A stretch of DNA of 64,000 nt from a virus (IMGVR_UViG_3300027608_000010), one strand, 5' to 3'; positions 14,153 through 58,376 are shown, counted from the stretch's first letter. Program-made: numbers and translations. Notes: a model not told the origin generated them from the sequence alone.

Positions 14153-14176
14153 ATAAGATTTTAAAAGGAAATCATT

Positions 14177-20050: not shown

Positions 20051-20917
20051 ATGAATTTTAATGAATTAAATAGTTTCAACATGTCGGATGCTGTTCGTTT
20101 TCACGAACATTTGAATCCTGCCATATTTAACGGTGACCACATGAAAGAAAACGTAAGAGAGCAATTATTATTGATTGCTAGCGATTTTATAGAACATCTT
20201 GGCTTATCTGATTTAGCAATTCAAGATATCACTATCTCTGGAAGTAATGCAGCCTATAGTTATACTAATCTAAGTGATATTGATTTACATCTATTGGTTG
20301 ATATGACTCAGTTCAACGAAGATGATGTTTACCGTGAACTGTTTGACGCTAAAAAGACTGTATATAATGATAACCACGACATATTGATTGATGGGTATGA
20401 AGTAGAATTATATGTACAGGATAGTAATGAACCTGTTATTAGTCTTGGTGAGTACTCAGTAATGAATGATAAATGGTTAAAGCTACCTAGAAAACGCAAA
20501 GCAGACTTTGACCAAGTTGCTACTAAATTGAAATATCGCAAGTTATACAAGTTAGCAGGATATGCATTAAAGTCTGATGATCCAGAAAAGATTAATAGAT
20601 TAATTAATACTGTTAAGAAATATAGAAGAATTGGATTAGATTATAATGGTGAGTTTGGCCCAGAAAATATTGCATTTAAAGCATTGCGTAATAAAGGTAT
20701 AATTAAGAAATTATATGAGAAATTACAATTACTACACAGTCAACGATTAAGTTTACCTGAGTCCAGCGGGTACATCCCAAGCCCAAATGAAAAGAATGAT
20801 AGACGATGGATGACTGCATTAACCGCAGATATCACACCATTTACAATGCAACAAAATGCTAAGAAATTAGGAAGTAAAATAAGTCGTGCGGGTATCCCAC
20901 CGTTACTTAGACCATAA
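20051..20917 (+). CDS. Pol-beta-superfamily nucleotidyltransferase
   Basis: ITISGSNAAYSYTNLSDIDLHL (GS...DxD) with a third acidic residue in YEVELYVQD. Confidence 0.75.
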   Translation: MNFNELNSFNMSDAVRFHEHLNPAIFNGDHMKENVREQLLLIASDFIEHLGLSDLAIQDITISGSNAAYSYTNLSDIDLHLLVDMTQFNEDDVYRELFDAKKTVYNDNHDILIDGYEVELYVQDSNEPVISLGEYSVMNDKWLKLPRKRKADFDQVATKLKYRKLYKLAGYALKSDDPEKINRLINTVKKYRRIGLDYNGEFGPENIAFKALRNKGIIKKLYEKLQLLHSQRLSLPESSGYIPSPNEKNDRRWMTALTADITPFTMQQNAKKLGSKISRAGIPPLLRP

Positions 20918-30127: not shown

Positions 30128-30135
30128 GATAAATA
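30128..30135 (+). promoter_or_regulatory. Late promoter-like GATAAATA
   Basis: Upstream of ATG 30156. Confidence 0.6.
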
Positions 30136-30155: not shown

Positions 30156-33100
30156 ATGAAAATAAGTCATTTACAAGAAAATCTTACACCTTCTTCTGCA
30201 CCAAGCGCATCAGTTCCTGGACCTAAGTTTGGCCGCAGTGATGAAATGTTAGAGTCTGACACAGGATCTAGCGCAAGCACAACTGCAGGTACTATAGCTA
30301 CGAGAACGGGCGAACAGCGTAAAGGTAAAAAGAGTATATTTCAAGGTATCAAAAATGCAGGTGGATTTGCTAATAGCAGAAAAGCAGGTATTGTTGGTGA
30401 GGGTGCTATCAATGAAGATGACTTAAGCGAAGAACAACTACAAGCAAAGAAAAAACGAGAAGATTTATTCAACAGAGCAAAAGACCGCGATATAGGTAAT
30501 AAACCAAAGTCACGTGAAATCATGGCAAGAGAATCTGACACTGATGATAATCCTAAACCAGGTAGCTGGCAAGAAATAGCAAAATTAAATAACATTACTG
30601 ATCCTAGAAAATTACAAGCTGACAAGTCAATTACTTTACCTAACGGTGACAGTTATTATGTGAATAAAGGTGATACACTTAGTGGTATTGCACAAAGATT
30701 AAGAACAACAGTGTATCCACAATACGGAGAACCTGGATCATCTACTGAGAAAACATCTACTGGAGATTCATCTAGTTTAACTAAACCAGCAATGTATGTA
30801 GGTGGTGTTAATAAACGAATGGCCACGCCTGTTGTACAACCAGACCCAAGAGATTTAGAAAAAGGAAATAGTAGAGGCACACGACCAGATGTTGCGCTTC
30901 CACGATATCCTGATTCAGTATATGATTATAAACCAGAAGTATCAACATCTTCATCTAACACGATACATCCTCCGGGAACATCAATCACAGCTAAAATCAA
31001 AGATCCAAAAGCACCAAATTGGCCATTGGATGTGAATTTAACAAAAGGTGATGACGGTAAGTGGCGCAATGAAAAGGGGCAATTACATAACTTTAATAAA
31101 CCAGGCGATAAAGAACAATTAGAAAAGATGCCAGCACTCCCGCCAAATCAGTCTAGTGCTGAGACCAAGCGTCTTAATAGTATCCCAAAGAATAAAGAGC
31201 CTGATATTCATAGTCAAGCCGCACAAGATGCACAATGGGAAAAAGATAAAGAAAATATGGGCAATGCATGGGATGAGTTTAAAGGCTGGGTTAAGAAACC
31301 TAGGTCTTTTACTATAGTACCTGGAAAAGATAAACCTCCAGTTGATCCAGCACATGATATTGGTCAACGTGCAGGACTATCACCGGATGAAATAGTTAAA
31401 AGACTTAAGTCAGCACCTGGTGGTAAAGATGATACTCCACCAGCTAAACCTCAGAAATCAACGACAAGTAAAGCATCTTCTGCATCACCTAATCTTTCTC
31501 CTGACCACAAAGTTATTGCTGGAATAGAAAGCGGTAATAAAGATTATAAAGATGACGGCACTCCAGTTGTTTCTCCTAAAGGTGCACAGTTTGCAATGCA
31601 GGTTATGAAAGATACAAACAGAGATCCAGGATTTGGAGTAGTTCCAGCTAAAAATAATAGTCCTGAAGAATCAAACAGAGTTGGAAGAGATTATTTTGAT
31701 GCAATGATGAAAAAATATAATGGGGATAAGGAAAAGGCTTCAGCCGCATATAACGCCGGTCCTGGCAGAGTAGATAGTAAAATAGCAAAAGCTGAAAAAA
31801 CCGGTAAAGATTGGAAAGATTTGTTACCAAGAGAAACAAGAAATTACATAAAGAAATTCAATAAAGGAACTCAAGTGGCCTCAAGTAATGATGATACAAT
31901 GAATGAAGATATTAGTCAAAAATATGCAAGAGACTATGAATATATTCTTACTTACTTATTGTCTGAGGTAAAACAACTTCCGAGTAGACCATTTGATTTA
32001 CCACCATTAGAAGGTGGCAGTAAAATTACTGAATTATTAGAGTTTGATGTTAGCAGTGCTGCTAAACGAGCAGGTAAAAAACTTGTACCCGGATTTGGAT
32101 TCGTTGATGCTGGTATAAGAGCAAAAGACGGTGATTATACTGGTGCGGCGATCGGTACATTAGCAGGCATTGCTGGTTTAATACCGGGAGGTCAGGGAGT
32201 ATCATTGGGTGCAGATGCAGTAAATCAATTACGGGATTATGCTCAAGAAAAAGGTGGATGGGGTAACTTGGCCAAAGAAGTTGGACAATCAATGTCAGAT
32301 TATTATGGTCAGCAAGGTAACTTAATTCCCGAGGATCTAGAAATACTAGATGAGCAAGGATTTCTTAGATGGTTGGAAGAACAAGATTTACATAATTTAA
32401 GTGAAGCCGGGGGACTCCGAGGATTGGTCTGGGATGCTGTTAAAGCAGGAGCTGGGAAGTTAAAAAATTTAGTCAAACCTGCTGAAAGAGAAGTTGACAA
32501 TCTTAAAAGATTAGATCAAAGAGTAGAACCCGGATTTACACCTCCAGCTGTACAAGTTCCGCCTGCACCGACCGGAACAACAGCGGCAACTAAAGTGACA
32601 CCTCCAAAACCTGCTCCAGTTGATACCAGACAGTCACCGATACTTGGACCCGACGGAAAACCTCTTAACGTTCCTGTCAATCCCAAAATTACAAATACTA
32701 ATGTAGGTCCGGGAGGTAGCAGAGAAGCTCAAGCATATAGGGCACAACAATCAGCACCGGCAGCTCAAGCAGCACCAGTAGATAAACCACAACCAACAGC
32801 AGGCGTACTTAGCCCGGAAGACTCGGCTGCCATACAGGCCTTGAGAAGAAAAAATGCTCCTCAAGGCTGGGAACATGTAGTTGATTTCGGAAAAAACGCA
32901 ATTGGCACAGGGACCAAATTGGGCACAGGTGCCGGTCTCGGGGCATTAATATATAATTATGCACCGGAGATAAAAAAGAAATGGGACGATGGGGTGGATG
33001 CAGTGGGTTCTGCTTATAATGAATTTTTTCCAGCACCTCCAAACCAGGACGAGGTTCAACGACAGGTTGACGATTATACCAAGCCCAAGACACCACCAGT

Positions 33101-34259
33101 AGAAATAAAAAAGCCAGATAATGAAGTTACTAACGGAAAAGATACTGCACCACCAAAAATAGAAAAGTCAGATGATACTACTAACGGTAAAGATTCCGCA
33201 TCGCCAGACACTGACACGCCGGATGCTGACGAGGTTGCTAGACAGGTGAAAGCTATGACAGATAAAACAAACGAATCTACAGTATCACGTATGGTTGATG
33301 AGTATGAACAAATTCTTGAATCGTTAATGGGTAAGTTAAGTTTATCAGAAGAACGCACTGAAACTAAAAATGAAAAAGGTGAAGTTACGAGCTGGAGAGA
33401 TGAATCTGATTGGCGCAAGGTCAAAAAAGTTAAAGACGGCCGCGGTCGGGTAACAAATCTAAGCGATAAGGCACGTAGAGAAACCGAAACGCTAACACAG
33501 AAAAAAGATGTGACAGAAGAACAAGCTGTACCACTATCAGGAAAGATATCAGCAAGACCTAACCAGGATCCAAACTCATTTGAAGATTGGGATTATTACC
33601 ATCAAGGTAAACCAATACAACCAGGTACTGATATACACACAAAAGTAAAAGATTTACATATGCGTCAATCAGATCCAGCATATGATACAATGAGAAATGC
33701 ATTTGATAATCCTATACAACCAGGATCAACACTTCCCCAAGATCAATCAGGTGATACGATTATTCCATCACATCAGAAGCAGCCAAGAGGAGTAAAAGGA
33801 CCGAATGGTGAAAAATTTCAATTCGATACAGATGAAAAAGCAAAATATTTTTTAGACAACATGCAACGATTACATCAACAAGATCAAGAGAGAGAGAGTC
33901 CTGATGCGATCAGATCCGAATCAACAAGTGCTAAGAAGAAAGGCATGGGCGGACAAGTTGTATTCTCTGGTACAGGAGACAACGGTGGTAAGTATGAAAT
34001 CATCCAATCTGGAGATGATTTTATGATTCACGCCAATGGTAAACACATTGATTCTTATGGAAGTCTACAACGAGCAATGAGTGTTCTACAAAATGAAGTG
34101 CCAGGATTAACTAAAACTGTAGCAGAAGAAAAGCCAGGACTATGGGCTAATATAGCTGCCAAAAGAAAACGTATTGCTGCAGGTAGTGGTGAACACATGC
34201 GTAAGCCAGGCAGCAAGGGCGCACCAACAGCAGACGCATTAAGAAAGTCAGCAAAATGA
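30156..34259 (+). CDS. Large modular virion-internal (ejection-type) polyprotein with LysM and soluble lytic transglycosylase domains
   Basis: Leader MKISHLQE; LysM (YYVNKGDTLSGIAQ); SLT (IAGIESGN, SPKGAQFAMQVM, AAYNAGPGRV, ETRNYIKK); C-terminal basic peptide KPGLWANIAAKRKRI...; many xxE sites. Confidence 0.8.
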   Translation: MKISHLQENLTPSSAPSASVPGPKFGRSDEMLESDTGSSASTTAGTIATRTGEQRKGKKSIFQGIKNAGGFANSRKAGIVGEGAINEDDLSEEQLQAKKKREDLFNRAKDRDIGNKPKSREIMARESDTDDNPKPGSWQEIAKLNNITDPRKLQADKSITLPNGDSYYVNKGDTLSGIAQRLRTTVYPQYGEPGSSTEKTSTGDSSSLTKPAMYVGGVNKRMATPVVQPDPRDLEKGNSRGTRPDVALPRYPDSVYDYKPEVSTSSSNTIHPPGTSITAKIKDPKAPNWPLDVNLTKGDDGKWRNEKGQLHNFNKPGDKEQLEKMPALPPNQSSAETKRLNSIPKNKEPDIHSQAAQDAQWEKDKENMGNAWDEFKGWVKKPRSFTIVPGKDKPPVDPAHDIGQRAGLSPDEIVKRLKSAPGGKDDTPPAKPQKSTTSKASSASPNLSPDHKVIAGIESGNKDYKDDGTPVVSPKGAQFAMQVMKDTNRDPGFGVVPAKNNSPEESNRVGRDYFDAMMKKYNGDKEKASAAYNAGPGRVDSKIAKAEKTGKDWKDLLPRETRNYIKKFNKGTQVASSNDDTMNEDISQKYARDYEYILTYLLSEVKQLPSRPFDLPPLEGGSKITELLEFDVSSAAKRAGKKLVPGFGFVDAGIRAKDGDYTGAAIGTLAGIAGLIPGGQGVSLGADAVNQLRDYAQEKGGWGNLAKEVGQSMSDYYGQQGNLIPEDLEILDEQGFLRWLEEQDLHNLSEAGGLRGLVWDAVKAGAGKLKNLVKPAEREVDNLKRLDQRVEPGFTPPAVQVPPAPTGTTAATKVTPPKPAPVDTRQSPILGPDGKPLNVPVNPKITNTNVGPGGSREAQAYRAQQSAPAAQAAPVDKPQPTAGVLSPEDSAAIQALRRKNAPQGWEHVVDFGKNAIGTGTKLGTGAGLGALIYNYAPEIKKKWDDGVDAVGSAYNEFFPAPPNQDEVQRQVDDYTKPKTPPVEIKKPDNEVTNGKDTAPPKIEKSDDTTNGKDSASPDTDTPDADEVARQVKAMTDKTNESTVSRMVDEYEQILESLMGKLSLSEERTETKNEKGEVTSWRDESDWRKVKKVKDGRGRVTNLSDKARRETETLTQKKDVTEEQAVPLSGKISARPNQDPNSFEDWDYYHQGKPIQPGTDIHTKVKDLHMRQSDPAYDTMRNAFDNPIQPGSTLPQDQSGDTIIPSHQKQPRGVKGPNGEKFQFDTDEKAKYFLDNMQRLHQQDQERESPDAIRSESTSAKKKGMGGQVVFSGTGDNGGKYEIIQSGDDFMIHANGKHIDSYGSLQRAMSVLQNEVPGLTKTVAEEKPGLWANIAAKRKRIAAGSGEHMRKPGSKGAPTADALRKSAK
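33516..33770 (+). repeat. 255-bp dispersed repeat, copy 2 (copy 1 at 17942..18196)
   Basis: Begins right after aaagatgtgaca (KDVT|EE), a degenerate form of the GGTGTGGCGGA junction. Confidence 0.92.
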
Positions 34260-35791
34260 AAATTAAAGATATTCTATTAGAAAGCGCACAAGGCAAAATG
34301 GTGCGCGGCATGCTAGTACAAACACTAGACCAATTTGTAAAAACTAGTAAAGTAGAAACTGTTGAAGAGGAATTAGATACTGCACCATCTGAAGAACCTA
34401 AACAACAACCGGTAAGATTTAGTCCTTCAATCAAAGCAAATTATTCTGATCAACCAAAACAACAACCTACACAATTAGACCCATCAAGAAGTGGCTATAG
34501 TAAAATACTTAATCCAGATGATGTTGCTAAAATGGTTCATCACAAAAATAGTTTTGTTATCTATTATGAATATAAGGCTCCTGATGATCCAGGTAGAACA
34601 TTAGAAAAACGTGTAACAACTGAACCTATCTATATTCCTCAAGAAAGAATTGGTGAATTAACTGCACAAGCTAATGCATTTATTGAAGAAAAATTTCCAA
34701 CAGCTACTGATAAGGCAAAGAAAACTAAAGCATATTCAATATTAGGTCGCTTAATGGAAAAGTTAGCCGTTGATGAGGCTATTAAGAATAGTGCAGAAGT
34801 ACAATACGCACTTGAGAAGGGCGTATTACCACAAAAGTTAAAAGCAAAAGCATTTACCACTACTGGCGCAAAAGCATCAAATCCATCAGTGCATAAAGGT
34901 TCAGTTCCTATTCTTAATGAAGAAGGTGAAATCATTTATGATTTAGATGGATTGGCAGCAAGTATCACACGCCGACCAGATAGACTTTTAAAAGTAAATG
35001 CTAAAATGGTAAAGAGTTCCGGTGACTCAGTGCAAATGGCAAACATTGGTATTCCTGCTATTGCTGGATTGGTAGTGGATGAAAAGACAAAAACATTTAT
35101 TCGTATCAATACATGTCCGGGCGCAGGTAAATGTAAAGATTATTGTTATGCGACACGCGGTGGATATGTACAGTATGCCGCAAGTTCAGAAAGTCAAGCA
35201 AGAGTATTAAATTATTGGTATAATGATCCTGAAGGATTCAAACAACAAGTAATTGCTGAATTCAAAAAATTAGTCAAGCCGGGTGTTAAGGCATATTTAC
35301 GTTGGCACGATTCGGGTGACTTCTTTGTTGATGCATACTTACACTTGGCATTTGAAGTTGCACATGCTGTTCCTGATGCAACTATCTATGCTTATACAAA
35401 AATTGCTAAGGTTGCACAAGACCCAATGATGCCACCAAACTTCTTAATTAACTTTAGTGACGGTGCTAAACCAGATGAAACTAAACAAATTGATTATAAG
35501 AAAGTTAAACATAGTATCGTTGTTCCTGGCGAATTATTCAAAGATGAAAAATCAACTGGGATTGGTTTAGAAAAACTACAAAATCAAGATCCAACTGCAC
35601 AGCAAAAAATGAAAGAAGTGATTGGTAAACAATATGATGTTGATCCTAAATCAGTATTAACATATGATGAAATGATGGATATGCCTGAGGGCAGTAAACT
35701 AAAATACAATGTAATTGTTGTTCCGGGACTAGACGGCGACTTAGGCGCCGCACGTAGAGATATTTTAGGTAGCTACTTACTATATCATTAA
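34256..35791 (+). CDS. GP88-like protein with a Cys3 cluster motif and an MKIKDILLE| leader
   Basis: NTCPGAGKCKDYCYA, LRWHDSGDFF and YAYTK resemble the phage 'gene product 88' family. Confidence 0.65.
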   Translation: MKIKDILLESAQGKMVRGMLVQTLDQFVKTSKVETVEEELDTAPSEEPKQQPVRFSPSIKANYSDQPKQQPTQLDPSRSGYSKILNPDDVAKMVHHKNSFVIYYEYKAPDDPGRTLEKRVTTEPIYIPQERIGELTAQANAFIEEKFPTATDKAKKTKAYSILGRLMEKLAVDEAIKNSAEVQYALEKGVLPQKLKAKAFTTTGAKASNPSVHKGSVPILNEEGEIIYDLDGLAASITRRPDRLLKVNAKMVKSSGDSVQMANIGIPAIAGLVVDEKTKTFIRINTCPGAGKCKDYCYATRGGYVQYAASSESQARVLNYWYNDPEGFKQQVIAEFKKLVKPGVKAYLRWHDSGDFFVDAYLHLAFEVAHAVPDATIYAYTKIAKVAQDPMMPPNFLINFSDGAKPDETKQIDYKKVKHSIVVPGELFKDEKSTGIGLEKLQNQDPTAQQKMKEVIGKQYDVDPKSVLTYDEMMDMPEGSKLKYNVIVVPGLDGDLGAARRDILGSYLLYH

Positions 35792-35853
35792 ATATATGGA
35801 CAAAGTTTTTGAATTCTATTGGAAAAATAAAGGAAACCCACCTGGGAAATAAA

Positions 35854-36294
35854 ATGTTATCAGACGATTTAAAAATATTATTAGCTTCAACAGAAGCATT
35901 CTCATTGAAGTCACGAAACTTCCATTGGAATATTGAGGGAAGTGATTTCCCACAATATCACGCATTCTATGAGTCATTGTATACTGAATCATACGAGACA
36001 GTAGATAAGATTGCAGAATACATCAGGGTATTGGGTAGCTATGCACCAGCAAGTTTAACTCGCTATGCCGAACTATCAATCATAGAAGATCAAACATTGA
36101 TACCACGTGCTGAGTTAATGTTTACTGAAACTTATGTTGATATACAAAAAATGATTGAACTTGTTGTTGCAATGTTTGACATTGCTACAGAAGAACGTCA
36201 ACAAGGTATTGCTAATTTTATGGCCGAACTACAAGACTTCTATGGTAAGAAAGCCTGGATGGTTCGCAGTATTCTTAAAAAAGAACGTGAATAA
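35854..36294 (+). CDS. dps: Dps-family ferritin-like DNA-protection protein
   Basis: NFHWNIEG.DF.QYH..YE..Y......D.IAE.IR.LG; likely start ATG 35854. Confidence 0.88.
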   Translation: MLSDDLKILLASTEAFSLKSRNFHWNIEGSDFPQYHAFYESLYTESYETVDKIAEYIRVLGSYAPASLTRYAELSIIEDQTLIPRAELMFTETYVDIQKMIELVVAMFDIATEERQQGIANFMAELQDFYGKKAWMVRSILKKERE

Positions 36295-36299
36295 ATTAC

Positions 36300-37322
36300 A
36301 TGCACCTCAATGAAGTCACATCACCTCTAAAAAAGTTTAAAGTAACCGTAAAAGTTAACGGTTCTTCAATAAAAACGATAATTCATGCTGAGTCACAAAG
36401 TCAAGCAAGACAATTGTTGGTCAAGTTATACGGCAAAGACAATGTACAGTCAATCTCTGAATCAATTCATCATATTACAACAGATGAAATGGCTCTTAAG
36501 CAGTTTACACCAATGGGTGACTTTGAGAAACCTGGACCATTTAGAGGTGTTGATAAAAGATTAATACCTCATCCAACTAATCAATTAAAGACACAACGAT
36601 TTTTAGAAAAAACTCCCTATGATTTTAGATTATTTTTTAGTAACATTCCTGGCACAGGTCGTTATAGTGAATACGGCCCAATGGATTCAGAAAATGTAAA
36701 AATTATATTCGGAGATGCAGGCGAACAGATTATTGCTGGACATCAAGATGCAATCACTATTGTATTTGTTGGTAATAAAGGTGATAGTAAAGTAATGATG
36801 ACCCCATGGATTATGGCACATAGATTTGGTCATGCTATTCAAGCAGGTCATCGTAATAGTGGAAGTAGCAAATCAGGTGCATGGCCAGAAGCAGAACAAT
36901 ATTTCTTTAATACAGTTAATCAAGTGTTAGAACGTTGCTATGGTAAGATAGCAAAAGACCAATATGGTCGTCCTGCACGAAGCGGTATGTCATTTAATTT
37001 AACACCAGAATATAATGCATTATTCAATGCTATTGGCACACAACGTAGCAGTCGCAGTAATGAAATTAAAAGACCATATGAATTCTTGTACGAATTGTTT
37101 GCACAGTATCTAGGTACAGGAACAATCACATTAAACCCATTACCGACTAACTTAGGTTACGGTCGGCAAGCATGGGGAAATCCAAGTAAATACCTTAATC
37201 TAAAATCAGAATTTCGTGATGAAGAAACAAGACAATATGAATCTCAAGGTATGGGTGATGATTTAACCGAATACTTTGCTGAAGTTTTAAGAAGTTGTGT
37301 AGGCAATATTTATGTTATGTAA
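36300..37322 (+). CDS. Hypothetical protein with an MHLNE| leader and a zincin-like HRxGH motif
   Basis: WIMAHRFGHAIQ ... YEFLYELFAQYL. Confidence 0.5.
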   Translation: MHLNEVTSPLKKFKVTVKVNGSSIKTIIHAESQSQARQLLVKLYGKDNVQSISESIHHITTDEMALKQFTPMGDFEKPGPFRGVDKRLIPHPTNQLKTQRFLEKTPYDFRLFFSNIPGTGRYSEYGPMDSENVKIIFGDAGEQIIAGHQDAITIVFVGNKGDSKVMMTPWIMAHRFGHAIQAGHRNSGSSKSGAWPEAEQYFFNTVNQVLERCYGKIAKDQYGRPARSGMSFNLTPEYNALFNAIGTQRSSRSNEIKRPYEFLYELFAQYLGTGTITLNPLPTNLGYGRQAWGNPSKYLNLKSEFRDEETRQYESQGMGDDLTEYFAEVLRSCVGNIYVM

Positions 37323-37325
37323 TTT

Positions 37326-38033
37326 ATGATTCTATATACTCTAATAGTAACCCACATCACAATCATTTGTGTCACACTTTTCTTACACAGAGGTCAAGCA
37401 CACAAAGGATTAATATTTCATCCTGTACTAAGTCACTTTATGAGATTCTGGTTGTGGCTGACAACCGGTATGGTTACTAAACAATGGGTTGCTATACATC
37501 GCAAACACCATAGACATAGTGACGTAGAGGGTGATCCACATAGCCCTCATGTATATGGGATTATGAGAGTATTTTTTAAAGGAGCGATACTATACCATGA
37601 CGCAAGTAAAGATAAAGATATGGTTGATTCATATGGTGTTGGTACTCCTTCTGATTGGATTGAGCACAACTTATACAGTGCTCACTCCAGACTTGGCATT
37701 GGCATTCTCTTTTTGTTCAACACGCTAGTATTTGGATATTGGGGTATACTAATATGGTTAATTCAGATGATATGGATACCATTCTGGGCTGCCGGAGTAA
37801 TCAACGGCATCGGACATTGGTGGGGGTATCGTAATGGTGAAACTAAAGATAAAAGTAAAAACATTAGTCCTTGGGGCATTATTATTGGCGGTGAATGTCT
37901 GCACAATAATCATCATTTGGAACCCGCGAATCCTCGTCTTAGTCGCCGATGGTTTGAATTTGATATAGGATGGATGTACATTAATATATTCAGTAGTTTA
38001 CGACTATTGAAAGTCAGAAACACACTACCTTAG
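37326..38033 (+). CDS. Acyl-lipid/acyl-CoA delta-9-type fatty acid desaturase
   Basis: His boxes LHRGQAH, HRKHH..SD..GDPHSP and LHNNHH, plus transmembrane segments. Confidence 0.92.
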   Translation: MILYTLIVTHITIICVTLFLHRGQAHKGLIFHPVLSHFMRFWLWLTTGMVTKQWVAIHRKHHRHSDVEGDPHSPHVYGIMRVFFKGAILYHDASKDKDMVDSYGVGTPSDWIEHNLYSAHSRLGIGILFLFNTLVFGYWGILIWLIQMIWIPFWAAGVINGIGHWWGYRNGETKDKSKNISPWGIIIGGECLHNNHHLEPANPRLSRRWFEFDIGWMYINIFSSLRLLKVRNTLP

Positions 38034-38110
38034 GACCTTTGCGTTATAAAGTGTGGCCCGGCTGCTGGGCTGAGAAAGCGATTCGCTACCGTGGACTCAA
38101 AAGTGAGCAA
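38031..38110 (+). other. GC-rich intergenic element with several short hairpins (candidate structured RNA)
   Basis: gcccgg-ctg-ctgggc, agcg-att-cgct and ctca-aaag-tgag in an otherwise AT-rich genome. Confidence 0.35.
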
Positions 38111-38122
38111 TATCCTTTCTGA

Positions 38123-38130
38123 GATAAATA
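38123..38130 (+). promoter_or_regulatory. Late promoter-like GATAAATA
   Basis: Upstream of ATG 38154, preceded by AGGA. Confidence 0.6.
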
Positions 38131-38153
38131 CACTATTACTCAGGATTTTTAAT

Positions 38154-38915
38154 ATGATTTTATTAGAAGGTGGAAACATTTGGCCAGACGTTGAGACTAA
38201 CTTTGACCCGTCTGTTGTCGGAAAACCACTAAGCGACACTACACAAAAATACCTAGAACCTTTGGGAGTCAAACTAGAGGTTATTGGTTCATGCTGGAAG
38301 CCTCGTTATGATGCGAACGGTAATGTTGTACCATCAAATGATTTAGATGCAATGGTGGAATTATCTACATTAATGCAACAGTTCCAAACAGAAGATTCAT
38401 CAACTACTCGCAAAACACTGGCAGCTTACTTTGAAAAGCAAGGAATTTCAACTAGGTTAGCAGGTGTAACTGTGCATGTTAGAATGCCAATGGGAAATAA
38501 GTTCTATCAAGCTGATATCAAAGTTGTAAAGAATGCTCATAAAGTAGCACAGTTTCACAGACACGATATTCCAAAAGGTAGTCCATATAAAGGTGTAAAC
38601 AAACAACTAGTTATGAATGCACTTGCTAGCACACAAGGTATGTTATGGAGTCCTGATGAAGCATTATACAAACGTGATGCGGCAGGGAAAAAAGCTGACA
38701 TGTTAAGTGATGATTGGGATATGATTGCTCAATACTTATTAGGTAGAGGTGCAAAAGGTTCTGACTTGGGTAGTGTAGAATCTATCATGGCAAAGATACC
38801 TGACAAAAGACGCAAAGAAGAAATTATGAACATGGCACGTGCTGGCCATAGTTGGCAACAAGCCACACCTAATGTAACCGAATGGTTTCGTAGAACAATG
38901 GAGATGTTAAAATGA
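38154..38915 (+). CDS. Pol-beta-like nucleotidyltransferase with an MILLE|G leader
   Basis: EVIGS......SNDLDAMV (GS..DxD) with a third Asp in YQADIKV; likely start ATG 38154. Confidence 0.6.
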   Translation: MILLEGGNIWPDVETNFDPSVVGKPLSDTTQKYLEPLGVKLEVIGSCWKPRYDANGNVVPSNDLDAMVELSTLMQQFQTEDSSTTRKTLAAYFEKQGISTRLAGVTVHVRMPMGNKFYQADIKVVKNAHKVAQFHRHDIPKGSPYKGVNKQLVMNALASTQGMLWSPDEALYKRDAAGKKADMLSDDWDMIAQYLLGRGAKGSDLGSVESIMAKIPDKRRKEEIMNMARAGHSWQQATPNVTEWFRRTMEMLK

Positions 38916-40225
38916 GAATAACTGAGATTATAGCTGAAGCAGCCAATCGTAAGAAACAGGCTGCGATTGCTATTGCTAAGAAAAAGAAGAAAGGTGTGGC
39001 GGAAGGCCTAAACGAACAAACATTTACAGGTGAGTATGATTCAGAGGACATGCAGGATGCACGTGACCAGGCAGAATTTCAAGCAAAGCATTTACTAGGT
39101 CAATCAATTCACGGTGCTAACTGGGATGGTAACGTCTTCTCCCTGCCCTTAGATGATTACGATGGCCAGCATGAGCGCACCACTTCTGACGGTAAAGGTA
39201 AATTTATTGCAAAGTATACATATACAAAAAAAGTTCTACCAAAAGTTCAAGAACAGGGTGTGGCGGAAGGCTCATTAAATGAATTTGCGATACCCGGTGG
39301 TGGAGATGGTGACTCAGGACGTTGGTATAACGATGACGAGCTTGCTGATATCATTGGTGATGATTGGTTTGAGGACTTTGATGTCAGCAACGATGGGTTT
39401 AATATTGATGCCTACGGCGAAAAAGCCAAGAAGAATTTAGTGGGCTATGCAAATACATGGTTTGATGATAAAGGTTATAATGTTAACGTAATGGGTGTAG
39501 AACACAATGATGTTGATCATGATTTACAATGGTACATTGTTGGTAGTTTCCATAATCCTCGCTTTGCCAACGAAGGTGTGGCGGAGGCTGGCTTTCCAGG
39601 TGCTCCAGACGTTGAAATGCCGCCAATGAAGCCAAGTGGTGATCCACAAAGAGACAAACTTAAACAAGAGTACGTGGACTTGCATCGTGAAATTAAAAGT
39701 TTGGTTGATTTACAGTATAATAGCAAATCAACAGAAGAAAAAATGCAGGCTAAAGCACGAATTAAACAACTCAATGACAGAGCAGACCAAATAAGGGCAA
39801 TTCTAGAACCTAGACAGCCACCCAACGAATGGCAGAAAAAAACATATGGGTTTGATGACAACTGGAACAAAGTGAATCAAGGTGTGGCGGAAGACTGGAA
39901 TAAAGTCAACAAGAAAGACAAGACTTCTGGAATGAGTCAAAAGGCGGTGAATGCTTATCGTAGAGAAAATCCAGGTAGTAAGTTAAAAACTGCTGTAACA
40001 ACTAAGCCAAGTAAATTAAAGAAAGGCAGCAAAGCTGCCAACCGTCGTAAAAGTTTCTGTGCTAGAATGGGCGGTAACAAAGGTCCCATGAAAAAACCTA
40101 ATGGTAAACCTACTCCCAAAGCATTGGCACTACGTAGATGGAATTGCGAGAGTATAGAAGAATTACAAGAATTAGTAATGCTTGCTGAACAATTTGTAAA
40201 CAAGAAAAAAAATGAGAGTATCTGA
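38912..40225 (+). CDS. Cassette-like polyprotein: five modules joined by GVAE junctions, ending in a basic DUF6321-like module
   Basis: Leader MRITEIIAE; four GVAE sites; last module AYRRENPGSKLK...RRKSFCARM...ALRRWNC. Confidence 0.7.
   Translation: MRITEIIAEAANRKKQAAIAIAKKKKKGVAEGLNEQTFTGEYDSEDMQDARDQAEFQAKHLLGQSIHGANWDGNVFSLPLDDYDGQHERTTSDGKGKFIAKYTYTKKVLPKVQEQGVAEGSLNEFAIPGGGDGDSGRWYNDDELADIIGDDWFEDFDVSNDGFNIDAYGEKAKKNLVGYANTWFDDKGYNVNVMGVEHNDVDHDLQWYIVGSFHNPRFANEGVAEAGFPGAPDVEMPPMKPSGDPQRDKLKQEYVDLHREIKSLVDLQYNSKSTEEKMQAKARIKQLNDRADQIRAILEPRQPPNEWQKKTYGFDDNWNKVNQGVAEDWNKVNKKDKTSGMSQKAVNAYRRENPGSKLKTAVTTKPSKLKKGSKAANRRKSFCARMGGNKGPMKKPNGKPTPKALALRRWNCESIEELQELVMLAEQFVNKKKNESI
38993..39893 (+). 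repeat. Four copies of GGTGTGGCGGA at 38993, 39257, 39575 and 39881
   Basis: Identical 11-mer (GGTGTGGCGGAAG in three copies); spacings of 264, 318 and 306 bp, all multiples of 3. Confidence 0.95.
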
Positions 40226-41387
40226 TTTATTACTTGAAGCCGCAGGTCCTGCTGTTGGTCGTAAGTACCAACATATTGAAGACCTTGTAGTCACTAACGG
40301 AAGTGGTGGTGGACTACATGCGGCTGAACGTATGAAGCATATGGTTGATAACTATGATTCTATTGAATTGAAATGGGACGGCATGCCAGTTGTATACTGG
40401 GGTCGTGATGAAAAAGGTATCTTTAGAATGATACCAAAGAATGCATGGGCGTATTTAAAATCTGGCAAGACACAAACAAGTAGCGGTGCACCGACGGTGA
40501 TGAATAGCTATAAAGATGTTTATGCTTTTGTAATGGGTACAGGTAATGCTGATCCTAATGACGAGAAACGAGTTCAGTTTGCAACACAATTTGCAAAGAT
40601 GTGGCCTTATTTTGAAAAGATTAGTCCACAAAAAGGATTTTTAGAAGGCGGGTTATTATTCTATCCAGGCACTAAACCTGATGGACAAAGTGCAATGCCA
40701 GTGTTTAATAAGAAAACACAAACATTTGATTTTCAGCCAAACATAACTAAATTTCACATTCCAATAAGTAGTGAATTAGGTAAAAGAATAGGTAGACCAG
40801 AACAATTAAATGCAAAGTTAATGGTAGCAGCCACTGGATGGTACGCTACATTAGGTAGCAGTGATGAACAACGTTATCCAAACGCAGAAAGTTTATCTAC
40901 AAAAGATGTTATTGTACAAGGCACTACATACGTAGAAGAAATGCCAGGGGTTGATACAAGTTATATTGATAAGATGATTCAGTTCATTAGTGGTAACGCA
41001 CAGATTATTGATACGTATCTATCACCTAAGAAAGGTCTATCTAGACCAAGCGGCATACTTTATACATATCTTAACAATCATCTAAGAGGTGATGGATTAG
41101 TAAGAGACTTCCCACAATGGACACAAGCTAATCTAAGTGAAGGTCAAGCACAAGGCATGTTAGCAGACAAAAAAGGTTATCAGACTGTACTTGGTGCAGT
41201 TGAAGGACTAAGTAGAGCTAAGATGCAATTAATTAAGTCATTGAGTTTAGGATTACACGGTGGTATAATGCAAACTAATCCAGAAGGATATGTGCAAGCA
41301 CATCCTGAAGTTAATTTTGATAATCCATTACCCGGCCAGTTCTTAAAGTTAATTGACCAACAAAACTGGGCACCAAAGAAGATATGA
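40212..41387 (+). CDS. ATP-dependent ligase-fold (covalent nucleotidyltransferase) protein with an MRVSDLLLE| leader
   Basis: Motif I ELKWDG, motif III-like LEGGLLF, motif IV PEGYV, motif V FLKLID; N-terminal HIEDL. Confidence 0.65.
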   Translation: MRVSDLLLEAAGPAVGRKYQHIEDLVVTNGSGGGLHAAERMKHMVDNYDSIELKWDGMPVVYWGRDEKGIFRMIPKNAWAYLKSGKTQTSSGAPTVMNSYKDVYAFVMGTGNADPNDEKRVQFATQFAKMWPYFEKISPQKGFLEGGLLFYPGTKPDGQSAMPVFNKKTQTFDFQPNITKFHIPISSELGKRIGRPEQLNAKLMVAATGWYATLGSSDEQRYPNAESLSTKDVIVQGTTYVEEMPGVDTSYIDKMIQFISGNAQIIDTYLSPKKGLSRPSGILYTYLNNHLRGDGLVRDFPQWTQANLSEGQAQGMLADKKGYQTVLGAVEGLSRAKMQLIKSLSLGLHGGIMQTNPEGYVQAHPEVNFDNPLPGQFLKLIDQQNWAPKKI

Positions 41388-42604
41388 GATACATAGAATT
41401 TTACGAATCAACACAAAACACAGCCGTAGTCGGTTGGGGTCGTGGTATGGGTCACAAAGGGCATATGTTGTTGGCAAGAGCAGTTATCATGCAAGCAGAA
41501 CAAATGAATGCAACACCATTCTTTTTTGTCTCAGCGACAATGGGCAAAGAAGATCCATTAACACCAGAAGAAAAATTATCAATATACAAAAAAGTATTTC
41601 CTAAACAAGCAGGTATATTTAATTTTGGACAAACACTTGGGCAAGTATTGAGTGATGTAGGTAAACAATATAAAAACGTTGTTTTAGTTTTAGGTGAGAC
41701 CGAAGTACCCTCATTTCAATGGTTATTGAATCCAGATAAGTCAGGTGTGTCCCCTTATAAAAATTATGGATTGAACAGTTTAAAAATCATAGCAAGACAA
41801 CAAGTTAACGATCCAGCACAAAAGATTGAAGGACCAAGAGCAACACCGATGCGTGAGATTCTATTGAATCCTCAAGCAAGTGAAGAACAAAAATTTGCAA
41901 TATGGCGTAGAGATATGCCTGATGCATTAAGTGATGAAGAAGTATTGTCATTGATGAATACTGCACAACAACGATTGAATGTAGCACATGCACCTAAAGT
42001 ACGTAAGTCACCAGTAAAAGCATTGAAGAAGAAAACAATGGCTGAATCAGCAGTAAGTGATTTGGCTGATAAATTACCTTCATTAAAGAAATATGATTAC
42101 AGCACTATTGATAATCTAATGAAACGTATCAGTGTTCGTTATAAAATTAGTGGTGATAAATTACATGACATGTTTGTTAGTAAGTATGGTCATACACCTG
42201 ATACTTGGATAAAGAAAATTAAGAATAGATTAAGTGAAGGTATTGAATCAAATGAAGATATGCAACAGGTTAATAATTTTGTTGAATGGTGTATTAAAAC
42301 CCTACATATTAAAAAACCATACCCAGTAATCACTTACAGTAAGAATTCAGAAGAAGCACAAGAAGGTCATCATACCGGTCGTCATACCAGTGATGGTAAG
42401 ATTTGGGTATATGTTGAGAATCGTAATATGGTAGATATCTTTAGAACAATCTTCCATGAATTAGTACATCACAGACAGGATCAATTGAATATGATTGGAC
42501 CCGACGATAGCTATCCAGGTAGCCCTGTTGAAGCAATGGCTGATATGCTTGCGGGTAAATACATTAAGATTTACGGCAAAGATCACCCAGAAATCTTTCA
42601 ATAA
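41384..42604 (+). CDS. HxGH cytidylyltransferase/NMNAT-like domain fused to a C-terminal HExxH metallopeptidase-like domain, with an MRYIEFYE| leader
   Basis: VVGWGRGMGHKGH, DPLTPEEK and RATPMRE; C-terminal RTIFHELVHHRQ...EAMAD. Confidence 0.65.
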   Translation: MRYIEFYESTQNTAVVGWGRGMGHKGHMLLARAVIMQAEQMNATPFFFVSATMGKEDPLTPEEKLSIYKKVFPKQAGIFNFGQTLGQVLSDVGKQYKNVVLVLGETEVPSFQWLLNPDKSGVSPYKNYGLNSLKIIARQQVNDPAQKIEGPRATPMREILLNPQASEEQKFAIWRRDMPDALSDEEVLSLMNTAQQRLNVAHAPKVRKSPVKALKKKTMAESAVSDLADKLPSLKKYDYSTIDNLMKRISVRYKISGDKLHDMFVSKYGHTPDTWIKKIKNRLSEGIESNEDMQQVNNFVEWCIKTLHIKKPYPVITYSKNSEEAQEGHHTGRHTSDGKIWVYVENRNMVDIFRTIFHELVHHRQDQLNMIGPDDSYPGSPVEAMADMLAGKYIKIYGKDHPEIFQ

Positions 42605-42679: not shown

Positions 42680-42943
42680 ATGAACGATGTTAAAACATTC
42701 AACGGCGATCAAAAAATCAAACTAACACAACTCATTAATGAGGGTATGCTAGTTATGAATGAAATTGATACATTAAACGGTGGACTCACCGATACAGTAA
42801 AAGCAATAGCAGAAGAACTAGAAGTTAAACCTAGTGTACTTAAAAAGGCAATACGAATTGCCCATAAAGCAAGTTTAACACAATCAAATCAAGAACACGA
42901 ACAACTCAACACTATTTTGGAAACTGTGGGCAAAACACTTTGA
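42680..42943 (+). CDS. T4 DsbA-like dsDNA-binding protein
   Basis: 87-aa helical protein, KAIAEELEVKPSVLKKAIRIAHK, similar to the C-terminus of T4 DsbA. Confidence 0.5.
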   Translation: MNDVKTFNGDQKIKLTQLINEGMLVMNEIDTLNGGLTDTVKAIAEELEVKPSVLKKAIRIAHKASLTQSNQEHEQLNTILETVGKTL

Positions 42944-45657
42944 GTTATGTAGATGCCATCCATTCACGGGATGAAGATAGAATTTATGTAGTAGAACGAG
43001 GTACTGACGGTAAGCGTCATTACAAAGAGTTCCCTGCCAATTATGTTTTCTACTATCCAGATAACAAGGGTAAGCATCGTAGCATTTATGGCAAACCAGT
43101 AAGTAGATTCAGTACTCGCAAGCGTACAGAGTTTGAGAAGGAACGCAGGATACACGGTGGTAAGGAACTCTTTGAGAGTGACATTAACGTAGTGTTTCGT
43201 TGTCTAAGTGAAAACTATTTGGGTATAGATCCTCCCAAACTACACACTTGTTTCTTTGACATTGAAGTAGACTTTGATCCAGAAAAAGGTTTCAGTCCTA
43301 CTACTGACCCATTCAATCCCGTAACAGCTATTTCATTGTATTTGGATTGGCAAGACACATTGATAACATTGTGTATTGCACCAAAGCACATGAGTAATGA
43401 AACAGCATGGGAAATTACACGTAAGTTTGAGAATACATTGCTTTTCAAAAATGAAACGGAAATGTTTGAGACATTCTTTCAATTGATTGAAGATGCAGAT
43501 GTGTTGACTGGCTGGAACTCAGAAGGATACGACATACCATATATGGTTAATCGTGTCACACGTGTAATGAGTAAAGACGATACACGTAAATTCTGTTTAA
43601 TGGGTCAACTACCCAAGCCAAGAGAGTATGAACGATTTGGTAAGTCAGAACAGACTTATGATTTAATCGGTCGTATTCACATGGACTATTTGCAACTCTA
43701 CAAGAAATACAACTACGAAAGTCGCCATAGCTATAAACTAGATGCTATTGGTGAAATGGAAGTTGGTGAAAACAAAACACAATACGAAGGTACTCTTGAC
43801 CAATTGTATAACAAGGACTGGCAAAAGTTCTTAGAGTATAACAGACAAGATACTATGTTGTTGGTTAAGATTCACAACAAACTTAAATTCTTAGATTTGG
43901 CTAATGCATTGGCACATGAAAACACAGTACTGTTACCAACAGTTATGGGTTCAGTGGCAATGATTGAAATGGCTATCTATAATGAGGCGCATGAGCGTGG
44001 ATTAGTTGTACCAGATAAAAAACGGAGAAATATAAATGCAGATGAAACACAGCAAGCCGCAGGTGCCTTTGTTGCTACGCCGAAAAGAGGTATGCACGAA
44101 TACGTCGGGGCAGTCGATATTAACTCACTCTATCCTTCGGTCATCCGAGCAGTTAACATGGCGGGCGAGACTATTGTTGCCCAAGTCAGACAAACTTTAA
44201 CCGATCAGTACATGAAAGACAAGGGTCTTAGATTAGCACAAGAAAAGAAACGTTATAAAGAAGGTGACGATGATGTGGGTGGTGCTATTCTATGGGAAGG
44301 TTTGTTTGGTGCGTTAGAGTATACTGCTATTATGAACCAAGAGCGTGGCACTATGCTTACTGTTGACTATGAAGATGGTCGCTGTGAAGAAATGTCTGCG
44401 GCAGAGATATGGAAGATGGTCTTTGACAGTCACAAGCCTTGGATGCTTAGTGCAAATGGTACAATCTTTACATACGAGAAAGAGGGCGTAGTTCCAGGAC
44501 TATTGTCTCGCTGGTACTCGGATCGTAAAGCAATGCAGAAGAAACTAAAAGAATCAACTACTGATGAAGACCGTGATTATTGGGACAAGCGTCAGTTAGT
44601 ACGTAAGATTTTATTGAACTCTGCATATGGCGCATTGTTGAATGAGCATTGTCGTTTCTATGATAAACGCATTGGGCAAAGTGTTACATTGTGTGGTCGT
44701 CAGATTGTTAAACACATGATGAGTACTATCAATGAAACAATCGCAGGTGAATATGCACACGACGGTGAAGCTATCGTATATGGTGATACTGACTCATGTT
44801 ATTTTACTGCATATCCTATTCTCAATTCGCAAATAGCAAATGGTGAACTAGTTTGGAATAAGGAAACTTGTATTGGATTGTATGATAGTATTGCTGACCA
44901 AGCAAACGAATCATTCCCTGCATTTATGGAGAAAGCATTTCACTCACCACGCAAGAATGGGGAAATCATTAAAGCAGGTCGTGAATTGATTGGTGATCGT
45001 GCTATCTTTATTACAAAGAAACGCTATGCTATCAATATCTTTGATAAAGAGGGCAAGCGTAAAGATAAAGATGGTAAACTAGGTGATATCAAAGCTATGG
45101 GTCTTGACTTGAAACGTGCTGATACTCCTAAATACGTACAAGAATTCTTAATGAGTGTTCTCAGTATGGTCATTCAACAAGGTAAAGGTCGTGATGAAGT
45201 CATTGAAACTATCAAAGACTTCAAGCGAACATTATCCGAGCAAGATAGTTGGACAAAAGGTTCACCTAAATCAGTGAACAAGTTAACAATGTATGGTGAG
45301 AAAGAAGCAAACAGTAGTAAAGGTCGTGAGAACATGCCCGGTCATGTACGTGCGGCATTGAATTACAACTATCTACGTAGAGTCAATGGTGACCAATACA
45401 GTCAAAAAATTGTTGATGGTATGAAGGTAGTAGTTTGCAAAATGAAATCTAATCCATTGAACTTTACAAGCATTGCTTACCCAACAGACGAACTGCGACT
45501 ACCTAAATGGTTTACAGAATTGCCATTTGATGATAAGGCAATGGAACAAACACTTGTTGATGAAAAGATTGACAACTTACTCGGAGTATTAAGTTGGGAT
45601 ATCAAAACCAACATTGATACTGATTCAACATTTAGTGATTTATTTACTTTCGGTTAA
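42940..45657 (+). CDS. Family B DNA polymerase with a 3'-5' exonuclease domain (T4 gp43-like)
   Basis: ExoI FFDIEVD, ExoII GWNSEGYD, ExoIII YNRQD; DINSLYPS, KILLNSAYG, YGDTDS, KKRY. Confidence 0.97.
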   Translation: MSYVDAIHSRDEDRIYVVERGTDGKRHYKEFPANYVFYYPDNKGKHRSIYGKPVSRFSTRKRTEFEKERRIHGGKELFESDINVVFRCLSENYLGIDPPKLHTCFFDIEVDFDPEKGFSPTTDPFNPVTAISLYLDWQDTLITLCIAPKHMSNETAWEITRKFENTLLFKNETEMFETFFQLIEDADVLTGWNSEGYDIPYMVNRVTRVMSKDDTRKFCLMGQLPKPREYERFGKSEQTYDLIGRIHMDYLQLYKKYNYESRHSYKLDAIGEMEVGENKTQYEGTLDQLYNKDWQKFLEYNRQDTMLLVKIHNKLKFLDLANALAHENTVLLPTVMGSVAMIEMAIYNEAHERGLVVPDKKRRNINADETQQAAGAFVATPKRGMHEYVGAVDINSLYPSVIRAVNMAGETIVAQVRQTLTDQYMKDKGLRLAQEKKRYKEGDDDVGGAILWEGLFGALEYTAIMNQERGTMLTVDYEDGRCEEMSAAEIWKMVFDSHKPWMLSANGTIFTYEKEGVVPGLLSRWYSDRKAMQKKLKESTTDEDRDYWDKRQLVRKILLNSAYGALLNEHCRFYDKRIGQSVTLCGRQIVKHMMSTINETIAGEYAHDGEAIVYGDTDSCYFTAYPILNSQIANGELVWNKETCIGLYDSIADQANESFPAFMEKAFHSPRKNGEIIKAGRELIGDRAIFITKKRYAINIFDKEGKRKDKDGKLGDIKAMGLDLKRADTPKYVQEFLMSVLSMVIQQGKGRDEVIETIKDFKRTLSEQDSWTKGSPKSVNKLTMYGEKEANSSKGRENMPGHVRAALNYNYLRRVNGDQYSQKIVDGMKVVVCKMKSNPLNFTSIAYPTDELRLPKWFTELPFDDKAMEQTLVDEKIDNLLGVLSWDIKTNIDTDSTFSDLFTFG

Positions 45658-58338: not shown

Positions 58339-58347
58339 TGATATACT
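58319..58347 (+). promoter_or_regulatory. Sigma70-like promoter for uvsE
   Basis: TTGACA-17 nt-TATACT. Confidence 0.75.
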
Positions 58348-58376
58348 CAAGACTTCACATACTTTACATAATATAT

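Follow-up and report, generated by a model that had tools for sequence, protein, structure and literature searches.

A gene cluster of an uncultured jumbo phage that probably encodes head-internal proteins with T4-style capsid-targeting leaders

The window analysed here is a single stretch of 64,000 nucleotides from the uncultured virus IMGVR_UViG_3300027608_000010, and we describe in it a cluster of nine adjacent plus-strand genes, A to I, at positions 30156-42604. Seven of the nine start with a short leader peptide that ends in Glu and has the form M-(K/R)-x-x-(E/D/H)-(L/I/F)-x-(x)-E or, in its short version, M-x-L-x-E. We consider it probable that the cluster encodes head-internal 'ejection' proteins of a jumbo phage, laid out on the plan of phage T4: the leaders would target the proteins to the head, a protease of the Peptidase_S77 family would cut them, and the resulting pieces would be injected. 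The best reading of the cluster is the T4 capsid-targeting and internal-protein system in a modified form, combined with cassette polyproteins. The T4 capsid-targeting sequence (CTS) is the textbook route for loading proteins for co-injection. To our knowledge, the device has been described for Alt and a few small internal proteins (IPs) of T-even phages only.

In the mechanism that we propose, a propeptide of 5-10 residues, M-(K/R)-x-x-(E/D)-(L/I/F)-x-x-E, would act like the T4 CTS and draw each protein into the prohead scaffolding core. A gp21-family (Peptidase_S77) prohead protease would cut after Glu in [L/I/V/F]-x-E, taking off the leader and severing internal linkers such as Q-G-V-A-E↓G (the arrow marks a cut, which is a predicted one except in the T4 proteins). 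The released pieces, of about 50-290 amino acids, would remain associated with the packaged DNA and pass into the host upon infection. The injected set would comprise an SLT transglycosylase, Pol X-like and HxGH nucleotidyltransferases, a KxDG ligase-like enzyme, zincin-like domains and many small modules of binder size. Inside the host, these would breach the cell wall and target nucleic-acid or defence systems of the host ahead of any phage gene expression. A preliminary description of this DNA had already read the N-termini as capsid-targeting leaders, and every computational comparison that could have spoken against this (portability of the leader, likeness to T4, the S77 head module of relatives, promoter-like boxes and hypervariability of the locus) turned out to support it. 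Targeting, cleavage, packaging, injection and what the pieces do in the host are steps that we infer.

Leaders and their conservation

Each of the seven leaders begins at the first ATG of its open reading frame (ORF): MKISHLQE (30156), MKIKDILLE (34256), MHLNE (36300), MILLE (38154), MRITEIIAE (38912), MRVSDLLLE (40212) and MRYIEFYE (41384). The N-termini quoted in the preliminary description are therefore real, as are two outlying ones that it listed, MFKSTLIAE (17699) and MRLVE (12118), which likewise lie at the first ATG. Its statement that the genes are consecutive needs a correction: the seven leader genes do form one block, into which two leaderless genes (35854-36294 and 37326-38033) are interposed. 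About 10 genes in the window are leader-tagged, five of them with long leaders and several with short ones. Most P1' residues, those directly after the leader Glu, are A, S or G; at P3 the leaders have L, I, F or V, and the linkers found within the proteins have V.

We scored the N-termini with two patterns, a strict one, M-[KRN]-x-x-[EDQHNS]-[LIFVM]-[LIFVYQ]-(x)-E, spanning 8-9 residues, and a loose one, [LIVFM]-x-E inside the first 10 residues. The strict pattern is found in 5 out of 71 genes of the window, all of them cluster members, versus 1 out of 398 internal Met positions. The related genome G001, which had no part in the design of the strict pattern and served as an independent test, gave 7 hits in 404 genes versus 1 in 2051 internal Mets. 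When the leader pattern was back-translated to DNA, the coding strands of three related genomes (G001, G002 and G003) contained 8, 4 and 4 matches, respectively, and the reversed-pattern control gave 0. Enrichment of the leader over internal Met contexts is about 100-1000-fold. The loose pattern is matched by 15 of the 71 window genes and by 17% of internal Met positions; being this common, it leaves the short leaders not significant from the window alone. The loose xxE motif by itself, with a background of 10-17%, was rejected as evidence.

We compared the cluster proteins with 59 related IMG/VR loci by tblastn. Their modules recur there in proteins of differing assembly, nearly all of which start with a leader (MRITEIITE, MKITELYE, MRILEVITE, MRANEFVTE, MNLNNLFE and MKINEIVKE, among others). 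Among the 120 closest database homologues of H, a leader is present in 113 out of 116 Met-starting members (e.g. MKIRTLLE↓AAGQ and MRAREFLTE↓AAA), and in the F family 114 out of 119 homologues have M-x(1-3)-[LFIV]-x-E at the N-terminus, directly ahead of an invariant GGNIW. For the domain of about 280 amino acids that makes up most of D, the 50%-identity cluster representatives include 902 relatives; in the best 145 Met-starting representatives, a leader with [LIVFM]xE at its end is found 122 times, and for the stand-alone forms the usual sequence is leader-E↓AP(L/I)xDY. Internal Met positions in the proteins of these three families match the loose pattern in 9.7% of cases and the strict pattern in 0.03%, and against the latter the strict-pattern share at the N-terminus is 65% in the H family, 30% in the D family and 0% in the F family. 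P1' is Ala in 90 out of 119 cases. Seven G001 leaders of the form MRA(Q/R/N)EF(I/V)TE use different synonymous codons, indicating that selection acts on the peptide and not on the DNA. The leader is portable: its peptide sequence is conserved ahead of cargo that is unrelated and shuffled. A second, longer leader class is present on some polyproteins of relatives, for example MLINDLYNNKKFVAE and MNLFDLIRKPKLME↓GGN.

Homologues that lack a leader are found in more distant phages. The cassette GWSxKYK reads MRANEFVTE↓GWSQKYK in G001 and in a further related locus (L022), and gp206 of cyanophage S-SRM01 starts M-GWSEKYK, leaderless. The DUF6267 homologue of S-CAM9 is without a leader, that is, without the extension of about 17 residues seen in H, and a cytidyltransferase gene comes next, as I does after H. 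A 93-amino-acid DUF6321 protein of HTVC010P, a podovirus and not a T4-type myophage, also has no leader. The start of the leaderless homologues coincides with the predicted cleavage point. In the cultured phages RaK2 and Atu_ph07, for which virion mass spectrometry exists, the leader DNA pattern gave 2 and 3 matches, respectively, in small hypothetical genes, a number near noise, and in Atu_ph07 no leader is present on any gene that lies between those for the ClpA-like protease and the DNA polymerase.

Two adjacent small genes (123 and 129 amino acids) with MRAREFI(A/T)E leaders lie at 263121-263878 in G001 and at 265935-266329 in G003. The pair is kept in both of these complete relatives, at a distance from the main cargo locus, and its members are the nearest analogues of T4 IPs by size. 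A predicted complex of the G001 S77 protease with the 123-amino-acid leader protein (G001 263121) scored 0.00 with poorly folded chains, and is hence uninformative either way.

Internal sites, linkers and cargo

The xxE sites that had been proposed to lie between domains proved to be real, as homology breakpoints cluster there. Boundaries of high-scoring segment pairs with relatives pile up at [LIVMF]-x-E, namely at residues 119, 225 and 327 of G, 221 and 285 of I (where the boundaries fall at 214-237 and 275-287), 1121 and 1324 of A, and 82 of the outlying protein encoded at 17699. Residues 1111-1223 of A and 72-184 of that outlying protein are 70% identical, and the common segment begins right past VTE↓ in the former and LDE↓ in the latter. 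The modules of G recur in relatives at 70-98% identity behind different neighbours, with junctions exactly at the linkers. Predicted cleavage products are mostly 50-290 amino acids long, which is the size range of mature T4 IPs.

The four junctions of G read Q/K/E-G-V-A-E-G/A/D, each encoded by GGTGTGGCGGA(A/G), at 38993, 39257, 39575 and 39881. GTG and GCG are rare codons here (9% and 7%). Across the window, G001 and the 59 loci, 71 out of 125 GVAE peptides are encoded by GGTGTGGCGGAA, versus about 0.3% expected from codon usage, and the 64 distinct linker contexts have nothing in common beyond the core (C)AAGGTGTGGCGGAAG. The exact 18-mer linker is present in at least 120 IMG/VR contigs (L096-L174 and others). 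Among the matches listed, ORFs recovered solely through linker DNA have 76 distinct N-termini, 22 of which carry a strict leader and 53 a loose one, and several apparent leaderless exceptions have their leader at the second Met. Leaders and linkers thus belong to the same proteins. From its DNA and its placement at breakpoints, the linker Q-G-V-A-E-G, encoded by (C)AAGGTGTGGCGGAAG(G), looks like a combined cleavage site and recombination joint.

We suggest more tentatively, as a real possibility, that the leaders and linkers belong to a combinatorial cargo system that is widespread in uncultured jumbo phages related to T4. Small effector cassettes would be carried by the dozen, as polyproteins behind a capsid-targeting leader, and joined by a DNA-conserved linker of 12-18 nucleotides, (C)AAGGTGTGGCGGAAG(G), whose product Q-G-V-A-E↓G would be the prohead-protease site and whose DNA would double as recombination microhomology, and each phage could thus load, cut and inject an anti-host set subject to rapid reshuffling.

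The genes of the cluster, all on the plus strand, differ widely in content. Gene A (30156-34259; 1367 amino acids) has the leader MKISHLQE↓N, a partial LysM domain, an SLT lytic transglycosylase domain at residues 471-551 and many xxE-bounded segments, among them a module of about 100 residues past VTE-1121, common to the gene at 17699, and a C-terminal module of about 43 residues past TVAE-1324. A homologue of A in a related locus (L046) starts MKISSLFE. The closest matches of the SLT catalytic domain, at about 55% identity, are large virion structural proteins of coliphages of about 52 kb. Gene B (34256-35791; 511 amino acids) has the leader MKIKDILLE↓S, a variable N-terminal half and a GP88 domain (PF17338) at residues 248-438, whose relatives start MRFNELQE, MKIRQIVE, MKITELYE or MNLKELYE. 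The SLT domain of A and PF17338 in B confirm the transglycosylase and the GP88-like protein that the preliminary description had counted among the cargo.

Gene D (36300-37322; 340 amino acids) consists of the short leader MHLNE↓V, a 49-residue alpha/beta module (residues 6-54) ending in ISE-54, and the domain of about 280 residues, in which H174, R175, H178 and E261 are invariant (a zincin-like HRxxH..E arrangement). Its AlphaFold model has a predicted local distance difference test (pLDDT) score of 90.5, with disorder at 1-6 and 54-62 only, which are the leader and the ISE-54 junction. Foldseek and structural alignment of the model gave no convincing match for the main domain (best Z 3.4, Pro-Pro endopeptidase) and, for the N-terminal module, matches to common small alpha/beta proteins only (Z up to 6.2).

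Gene F (38154-38915; 253 amino acids) has the short leader MILLE↓GGNIW. Its model (pLDDT 89.4; disorder at 1-6 and near the C-terminus, 243-245) retrieved DNA polymerases lambda and beta in Foldseek, with E-values of about 4e-7 to 3e-6 and template-modelling (TM) scores of 0.43-0.51 (pol lambda: E 4e-7, TM about 0.47), and G45, S46, D63 and D65 of the GS...DxD catalytic motif are invariant. According to this model, F has a Pol X-like (pol beta/lambda) palm and thumb fold and is a predicted nucleotidyltransferase. Gene I (41384-42604; 406 amino acids) has the leader MRYIEFYE↓S, an HxGH nucleotidyltransferase domain (9-221) ending in TMAE-221, a 64-residue module ending in LSE-285, and an HExxH domain (286-406). 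The N-terminal domain matches the cytidyltransferase family phrog_3041 (1.6e-17), and so the nucleotidyltransferases foreseen in the preliminary description are borne out by the modelled fold of F and the PHROG match of I.

Gene G (38912-40225; 437 amino acids) is a cassette polyprotein with the leader MRITEIIAE↓A and five modules of 22-110 residues, at 10-31, 32-119, 120-225, 226-327 and 328-437, the last being DUF6321. Gene H (40212-41387; 391 amino acids) has the leader MRVSDLLLE↓AAG and a DUF6267 domain with a ligase-type KxDG motif, in which L53-K54-W55-D56-G57 is invariant across homologues. A profile search with the H alignment found no PDB match, and the ESM Atlas returned a weak lead, an RNA_ligase cluster at 0.76. 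Sequence searches of the PDB yielded nothing useful for F, D, H or I. Pfam and PHROG scans of all nine cluster proteins found no IPI, IPII, IPIII or Alt family. Nor did Pfam find a MuF, MPTase, ART, ArdC or DarB-type helicase/methylase domain; the HExxH motif of I and the HRxxH..E motif of D are present, with folds unmatched.

Two genes in the cluster stand outside the leader set. Gene C (35854-36294) encodes a ferritin/Dps-like protein, 30 out of 30 relatives of which start ML(S/A)D.LK, none with a leader, and it adjoins cargo genes in 30 related loci. Gene E (37326-38033) encodes a membrane fatty-acid desaturase and is also leaderless. Outside the cluster, on the plus strand, the outlying leader gene at 17699-18634 (311 amino acids) reads MFKSTLIAE↓Q and has LDE-82, followed by a module from residue 83 to about 184. 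The outlying short-leader gene at 12118-12696 (192 amino acids) starts MRLVE↓N, and its relatives start MRKVLVE↓G; taken alone, it is a weak case. A further plus-strand gene, at 20051-20917 (288 amino acids), starts MNFNE↓LNSF and has no Pfam match. In relatives (G001 67037-70300, L011 and L018), the MNFNELNSF...LNP domain heads cassette polyproteins of 1087-1775 amino acids, together with GP88, G-type and HExxH modules.

Phage lineage, head genes and locus

The window has a GC content of about 37%, and its plus strand holds nearly all genes. A family-B DNA polymerase, encoded at 42940-45657, shares 42-48% identity with its counterparts in Atu_ph07 (Agrobacterium), Phosso (Sinorhizobium), XaC1 (Xanthomonas) and RaK2 (Klebsiella); a megablast search of cultured phages with the leader cluster gave no DNA-level match. 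IMG/VR contains many related contigs, including four near-complete genomes, G001-G004, of 332-355 kb. The core genes of the window are collinear with those of G001, with identities of 60% for the clamp loader, 64% for the ClpA-like ATPase and 63% for the DNA polymerase. Judged by these core genes, the window is part of a RaK2/Atu_ph07-like jumbo phage of about 350 kb, and a freshwater jumbo myophage of this kind is the best explanation for the phage that carries the cluster.

The findings on protease and head genes come from related contigs. A Peptidase_S77 (gp21-family) protease is encoded in all four of the near-complete relatives (E-values 1e-23 to 5e-27). G001 has the T4 gene order 20-67-68-21-22-23, with a portal gene, a 72-amino-acid gene in the gp67 position, an acidic gene in the gp68 position, the S77 protease, a scaffold gene and a gp23-like major capsid protein (MCP). 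Five more large contigs were found through the linker, three of them with S77, which brings the overall count to 7 out of 9 large related contigs. The two contigs without S77 have a DNA polymerase 62-63% identical and also lack the T4-type portal and MCP, so the head module is missing from them as a whole. The MCP N-termini of G001 and RaK2 carry L-x-E shortly ahead of the conserved core. In the gp67 position, RaK2 ORF090 (L086, 83491-83721) starts MLFKDIFE↓S and the G001 gene at 223387-223605 starts MILNELY; both resemble the second, longer leader class.

A late-promoter-like box, GATAAATA, lies on the plus strand at 30128-30135, 20 nucleotides upstream of A, and again at 38123-38130, 23 nucleotides upstream of F. 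With the same spacing (19-23 nucleotides), TATAAATA is found ahead of the fibre-like genes at 6637, 19739 and 27598, and NATAAATA also precedes fibre-like genes of G001. Several of the cluster genes had been said to follow late promoters; this holds for A and F, which have a NATAAATA box at promoter distance, and for those two cluster genes only. The remaining genes of the cluster touch or overlap one another, as would be expected of two late operons, A-E and F-I. The GATAAATA box of F sits within the extension that would result from an alternative GTG start at 38091, which speaks for ATG 38154 as the real start codon.

Relative to G001, no part of the region is less conserved than the cluster, which lies between collinear flanks. 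G001 has no counterpart of A, D or F, and B, G and I match there by single modules only. By analogy, this hypervariability resembles the behaviour described for T-even IP loci (PMC3012670).

Upstream of the cargo region, the window (13340-16459), G001 (57624-60746) and Atu_ph07 (gp293-gp292) share a DnaJ-like gene followed by a gene for a ClpA/ClpB-like 'ATP-dependent protease' ATPase of about 750 amino acids. It is conceivable that this ATPase has a role in unfolding or loading the cargo. Directly upstream of the cluster lie a 2-oxoglutarate-Fe(II) oxygenase gene (PF13759; 29439-30071, minus strand) and a small neighbour, which are two of the three minus-strand genes of the window, the third being at 10539-11165. 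G001 has no counterpart of the oxygenase gene or of its small neighbour.

Alternative explanations and known systems

Several points weigh against reading the cluster as a T4-like internal-protein system. With its 1367 residues, A is much bigger than any T4 internal protein, and the Dps-like protein C and the membrane desaturase E are clearly not cargo. The motif [LIVFM]-x-E is loose, with a background of 10-17%, and the short leaders MHLNE and MRLVE are weak by themselves; in addition, the linkers have Val at P3 and some leaders have Phe, whereas documented T4 sites show Leu or Ile. The leader family is missing from RaK2 and Atu_ph07, the cultured relatives whose virions have been analysed by mass spectrometry, and a tblastn search of cultured phage records with the D domain gave no match. 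What is known of the protease comes from the genomes of relatives. Finally, the embedded HExxH and HRxxH domains could process the polyproteins in place of a prohead protease. We considered three other explanations, all of which are less well supported than the T4-like reading.

The embedded domains just mentioned lead to the first of these, a rather unlikely one, in which the proteins are cytoplasmic polyproteins whose leaders and linkers are cut by an embedded zincin-like domain or by a host or phage glutamyl endopeptidase, and whose products act late in the infected cell, unpackaged. Candidate peptidases are at hand in the HExxH domain of I and in the D family with its invariant H174, R175, H178 and E261, and polyvalent proteins have been proposed to self-process through embedded metallopeptidases (MPTase; PMC5512222). 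However, the motif, with its hydrophobic P3, Glu at P1 and small P1', fits gp21-type sites and not any zincin specificity, the catalytic Glu position in D is occupied by Arg, and most leader proteins (F, H, G and those encoded at G001 263121/263489) have no peptidase domain. Cytoplasmic polyproteins would have no obvious use for an N-terminal propeptide of 5-9 residues, and the SLT domain of A is of the virion-associated type.

It is also unlikely that the proteins, while targeted and cleaved, are parts of the head core or 'inner body' that serve capsid assembly or DNA condensation and are degraded, expelled or retained, without acting as effectors. T4 gp22, gp67 and gp68 are degraded core proteins with the same kind of N-termini, and the gp67-position genes RaK2 ORF090 (MLFKDIFE) and G001 223387 (MILNELY) are like the second class of cargo leaders. 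Yet structural scaffolds are conserved, and neither enzymes (SLT, Pol X-like, HxGH and KxDG) nor hypervariable cassettes would be expected among them; the locus is wholly different between relatives with 60-64% identical core genes. Very unlikely is a role of the leader as a translation-initiation or expression feature, as a DNA recombination joint for gene shuffling, or as a chance similarity: leader codons are A-rich, several leader genes are without a good Shine-Dalgarno sequence, and the inter-module linker is DNA-conserved and resembles a recombination joint, but synonymous sites vary while the residue pattern is kept, the conserved Glu is followed by Ala or Gly exactly where leaderless homologues start, and enrichment over internal Met contexts is about 100-1000-fold.

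If the T4-like reading is true, uncultured jumbo phages of lakes, a group that is large and abundant, have made the CTS device a major part of their biology. The leader is carried by hundreds of metagenomic protein clusters, with cargo that includes polymerase-like, ligase-like and cell-wall enzymes. Its nine-residue motif would then be a simple tag that predicts injected hypothetical proteins, giving a list of candidate first-strike anti-defence factors, and the natural alternative leaders and cleavable linkers could be of use in T4-style platforms for protein packaging and delivery. We found no description of this leader/linker system in the searchable literature.

Four known systems invite comparison. 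T4-like cyanophages have the same modules, namely the GWSxKYK cassette, DUF6321, DUF6267 and the HxGH nucleotidyltransferase, in S-SRM01 gp206 (L216), in the S-E7 'structural protein T4 GC0119' and in a gene pair of S-CAM9 (L082, 129629-131952), which has the same H-I order of DUF6267 and cytidyltransferase. Their cassette proteins differ in having no CTS-like leader and no G-V-A-E linkers. In several of these cyanophages, the multi-cassette gene maps to the terminase region: in P-TIM68 and Bellamy it lies a little upstream of the large-subunit gene, and in S-E7 and S-SRM01 it lies downstream of the small-subunit gene; the cassette protein of S-E7 (L092) is annotated as structural.

Polyvalent proteins (Iyer et al. 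2017, PMC5512222) likewise combine unrelated enzymatic and binding domains, such as peptidoglycan hydrolases, nucleic-acid enzymes and zincin-like peptidases, with extensive domain mosaicism and proposed packaging and delivery with the DNA. At least two unrelated domains per polypeptide are found in A, I and G, along with late-promoter-like boxes. The cluster described here differs in its uniform, DNA-conserved linker resembling a prohead-protease site and in its T4-type leader.

The ejection or inner-body proteins of phiKZ, 201phi2-1 and SPN3US, which are processed by an S80 protease, also belong to giant phages with a large mass of head-internal proteins, are cleaved after Glu in a three-residue motif at multiple sites per protein, and have propeptides that are proposed targeting sequences (PMC5694885, PMC7411985). 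P3 is small in their motif, which reads (S/A/G)-x-E or A-x-E (PMC5694885), whereas P3 is hydrophobic here, as in T4. Moreover, the protease of the relatives scores as Peptidase_S77, to which T4 gp21 belongs, the head genes are in T4 order, and no homology to phiKZ cargo was seen.

The T4 internal proteins are the closest comparison. The cluster differs from them in having many more carriers, multi-domain enzymes of up to 1367 amino acids and cassette polyproteins with repeated internal sites; host and lineage are other than those of T4, the carriers being uncultured RaK2/Atu_ph07-like phages of about 350 kb, P3 can be Val or Phe, and the cargo has no homology to T4 IPs. Such homology is not required of the class, since the T-even IPs are themselves mutually unrelated, a highly diverse set that has in common only the conserved CTS (PMC3012670). 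In T4, the CTS brings all internal head proteins into the core (PMC5694885), it is cleaved by gp21 according to Mullaney and Black (1996), as cited in PMC5694885, and Alt is cleaved at ITE-6 and LTE-619 (PMC5694885). We took the N-termini of T4 from record NC_000866. They read MKTYQEFIAE↓A in ipII and ipIII, MKTFKEF...STITE↓A in ipI, and, among the core proteins, MLKEQLIAE↓A in gp22, MEGLIE↓A in gp67, MLLIPE↓T in gp68 and MAKINELLRE↓S in gp24; the gp23 cut site is ...FLTE↓AEIGG. The window leaders MRITEIIAE↓AA and MFKSTLIAE↓Q and the G001 leader MRAQEFITE↓G are very close to the T4 CTS, and the short MHLNE, MILLE and MRLVE resemble the six-residue propeptide of Alt and those of gp67 and gp68. 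Both systems have a short leader ending in (L/I)-x-E and followed by a small residue (about 5-10 residues in the T4 class, up to 19), conserved leaders ahead of hypervariable cargo, late-looking expression, and a T4-type head module with a gp21-family protease, here in the relatives. The predicted products of about 50-200 amino acids are like IPI*, IPII* and IPIII*, and T4, too, packages larger enzymes, as with Alt.

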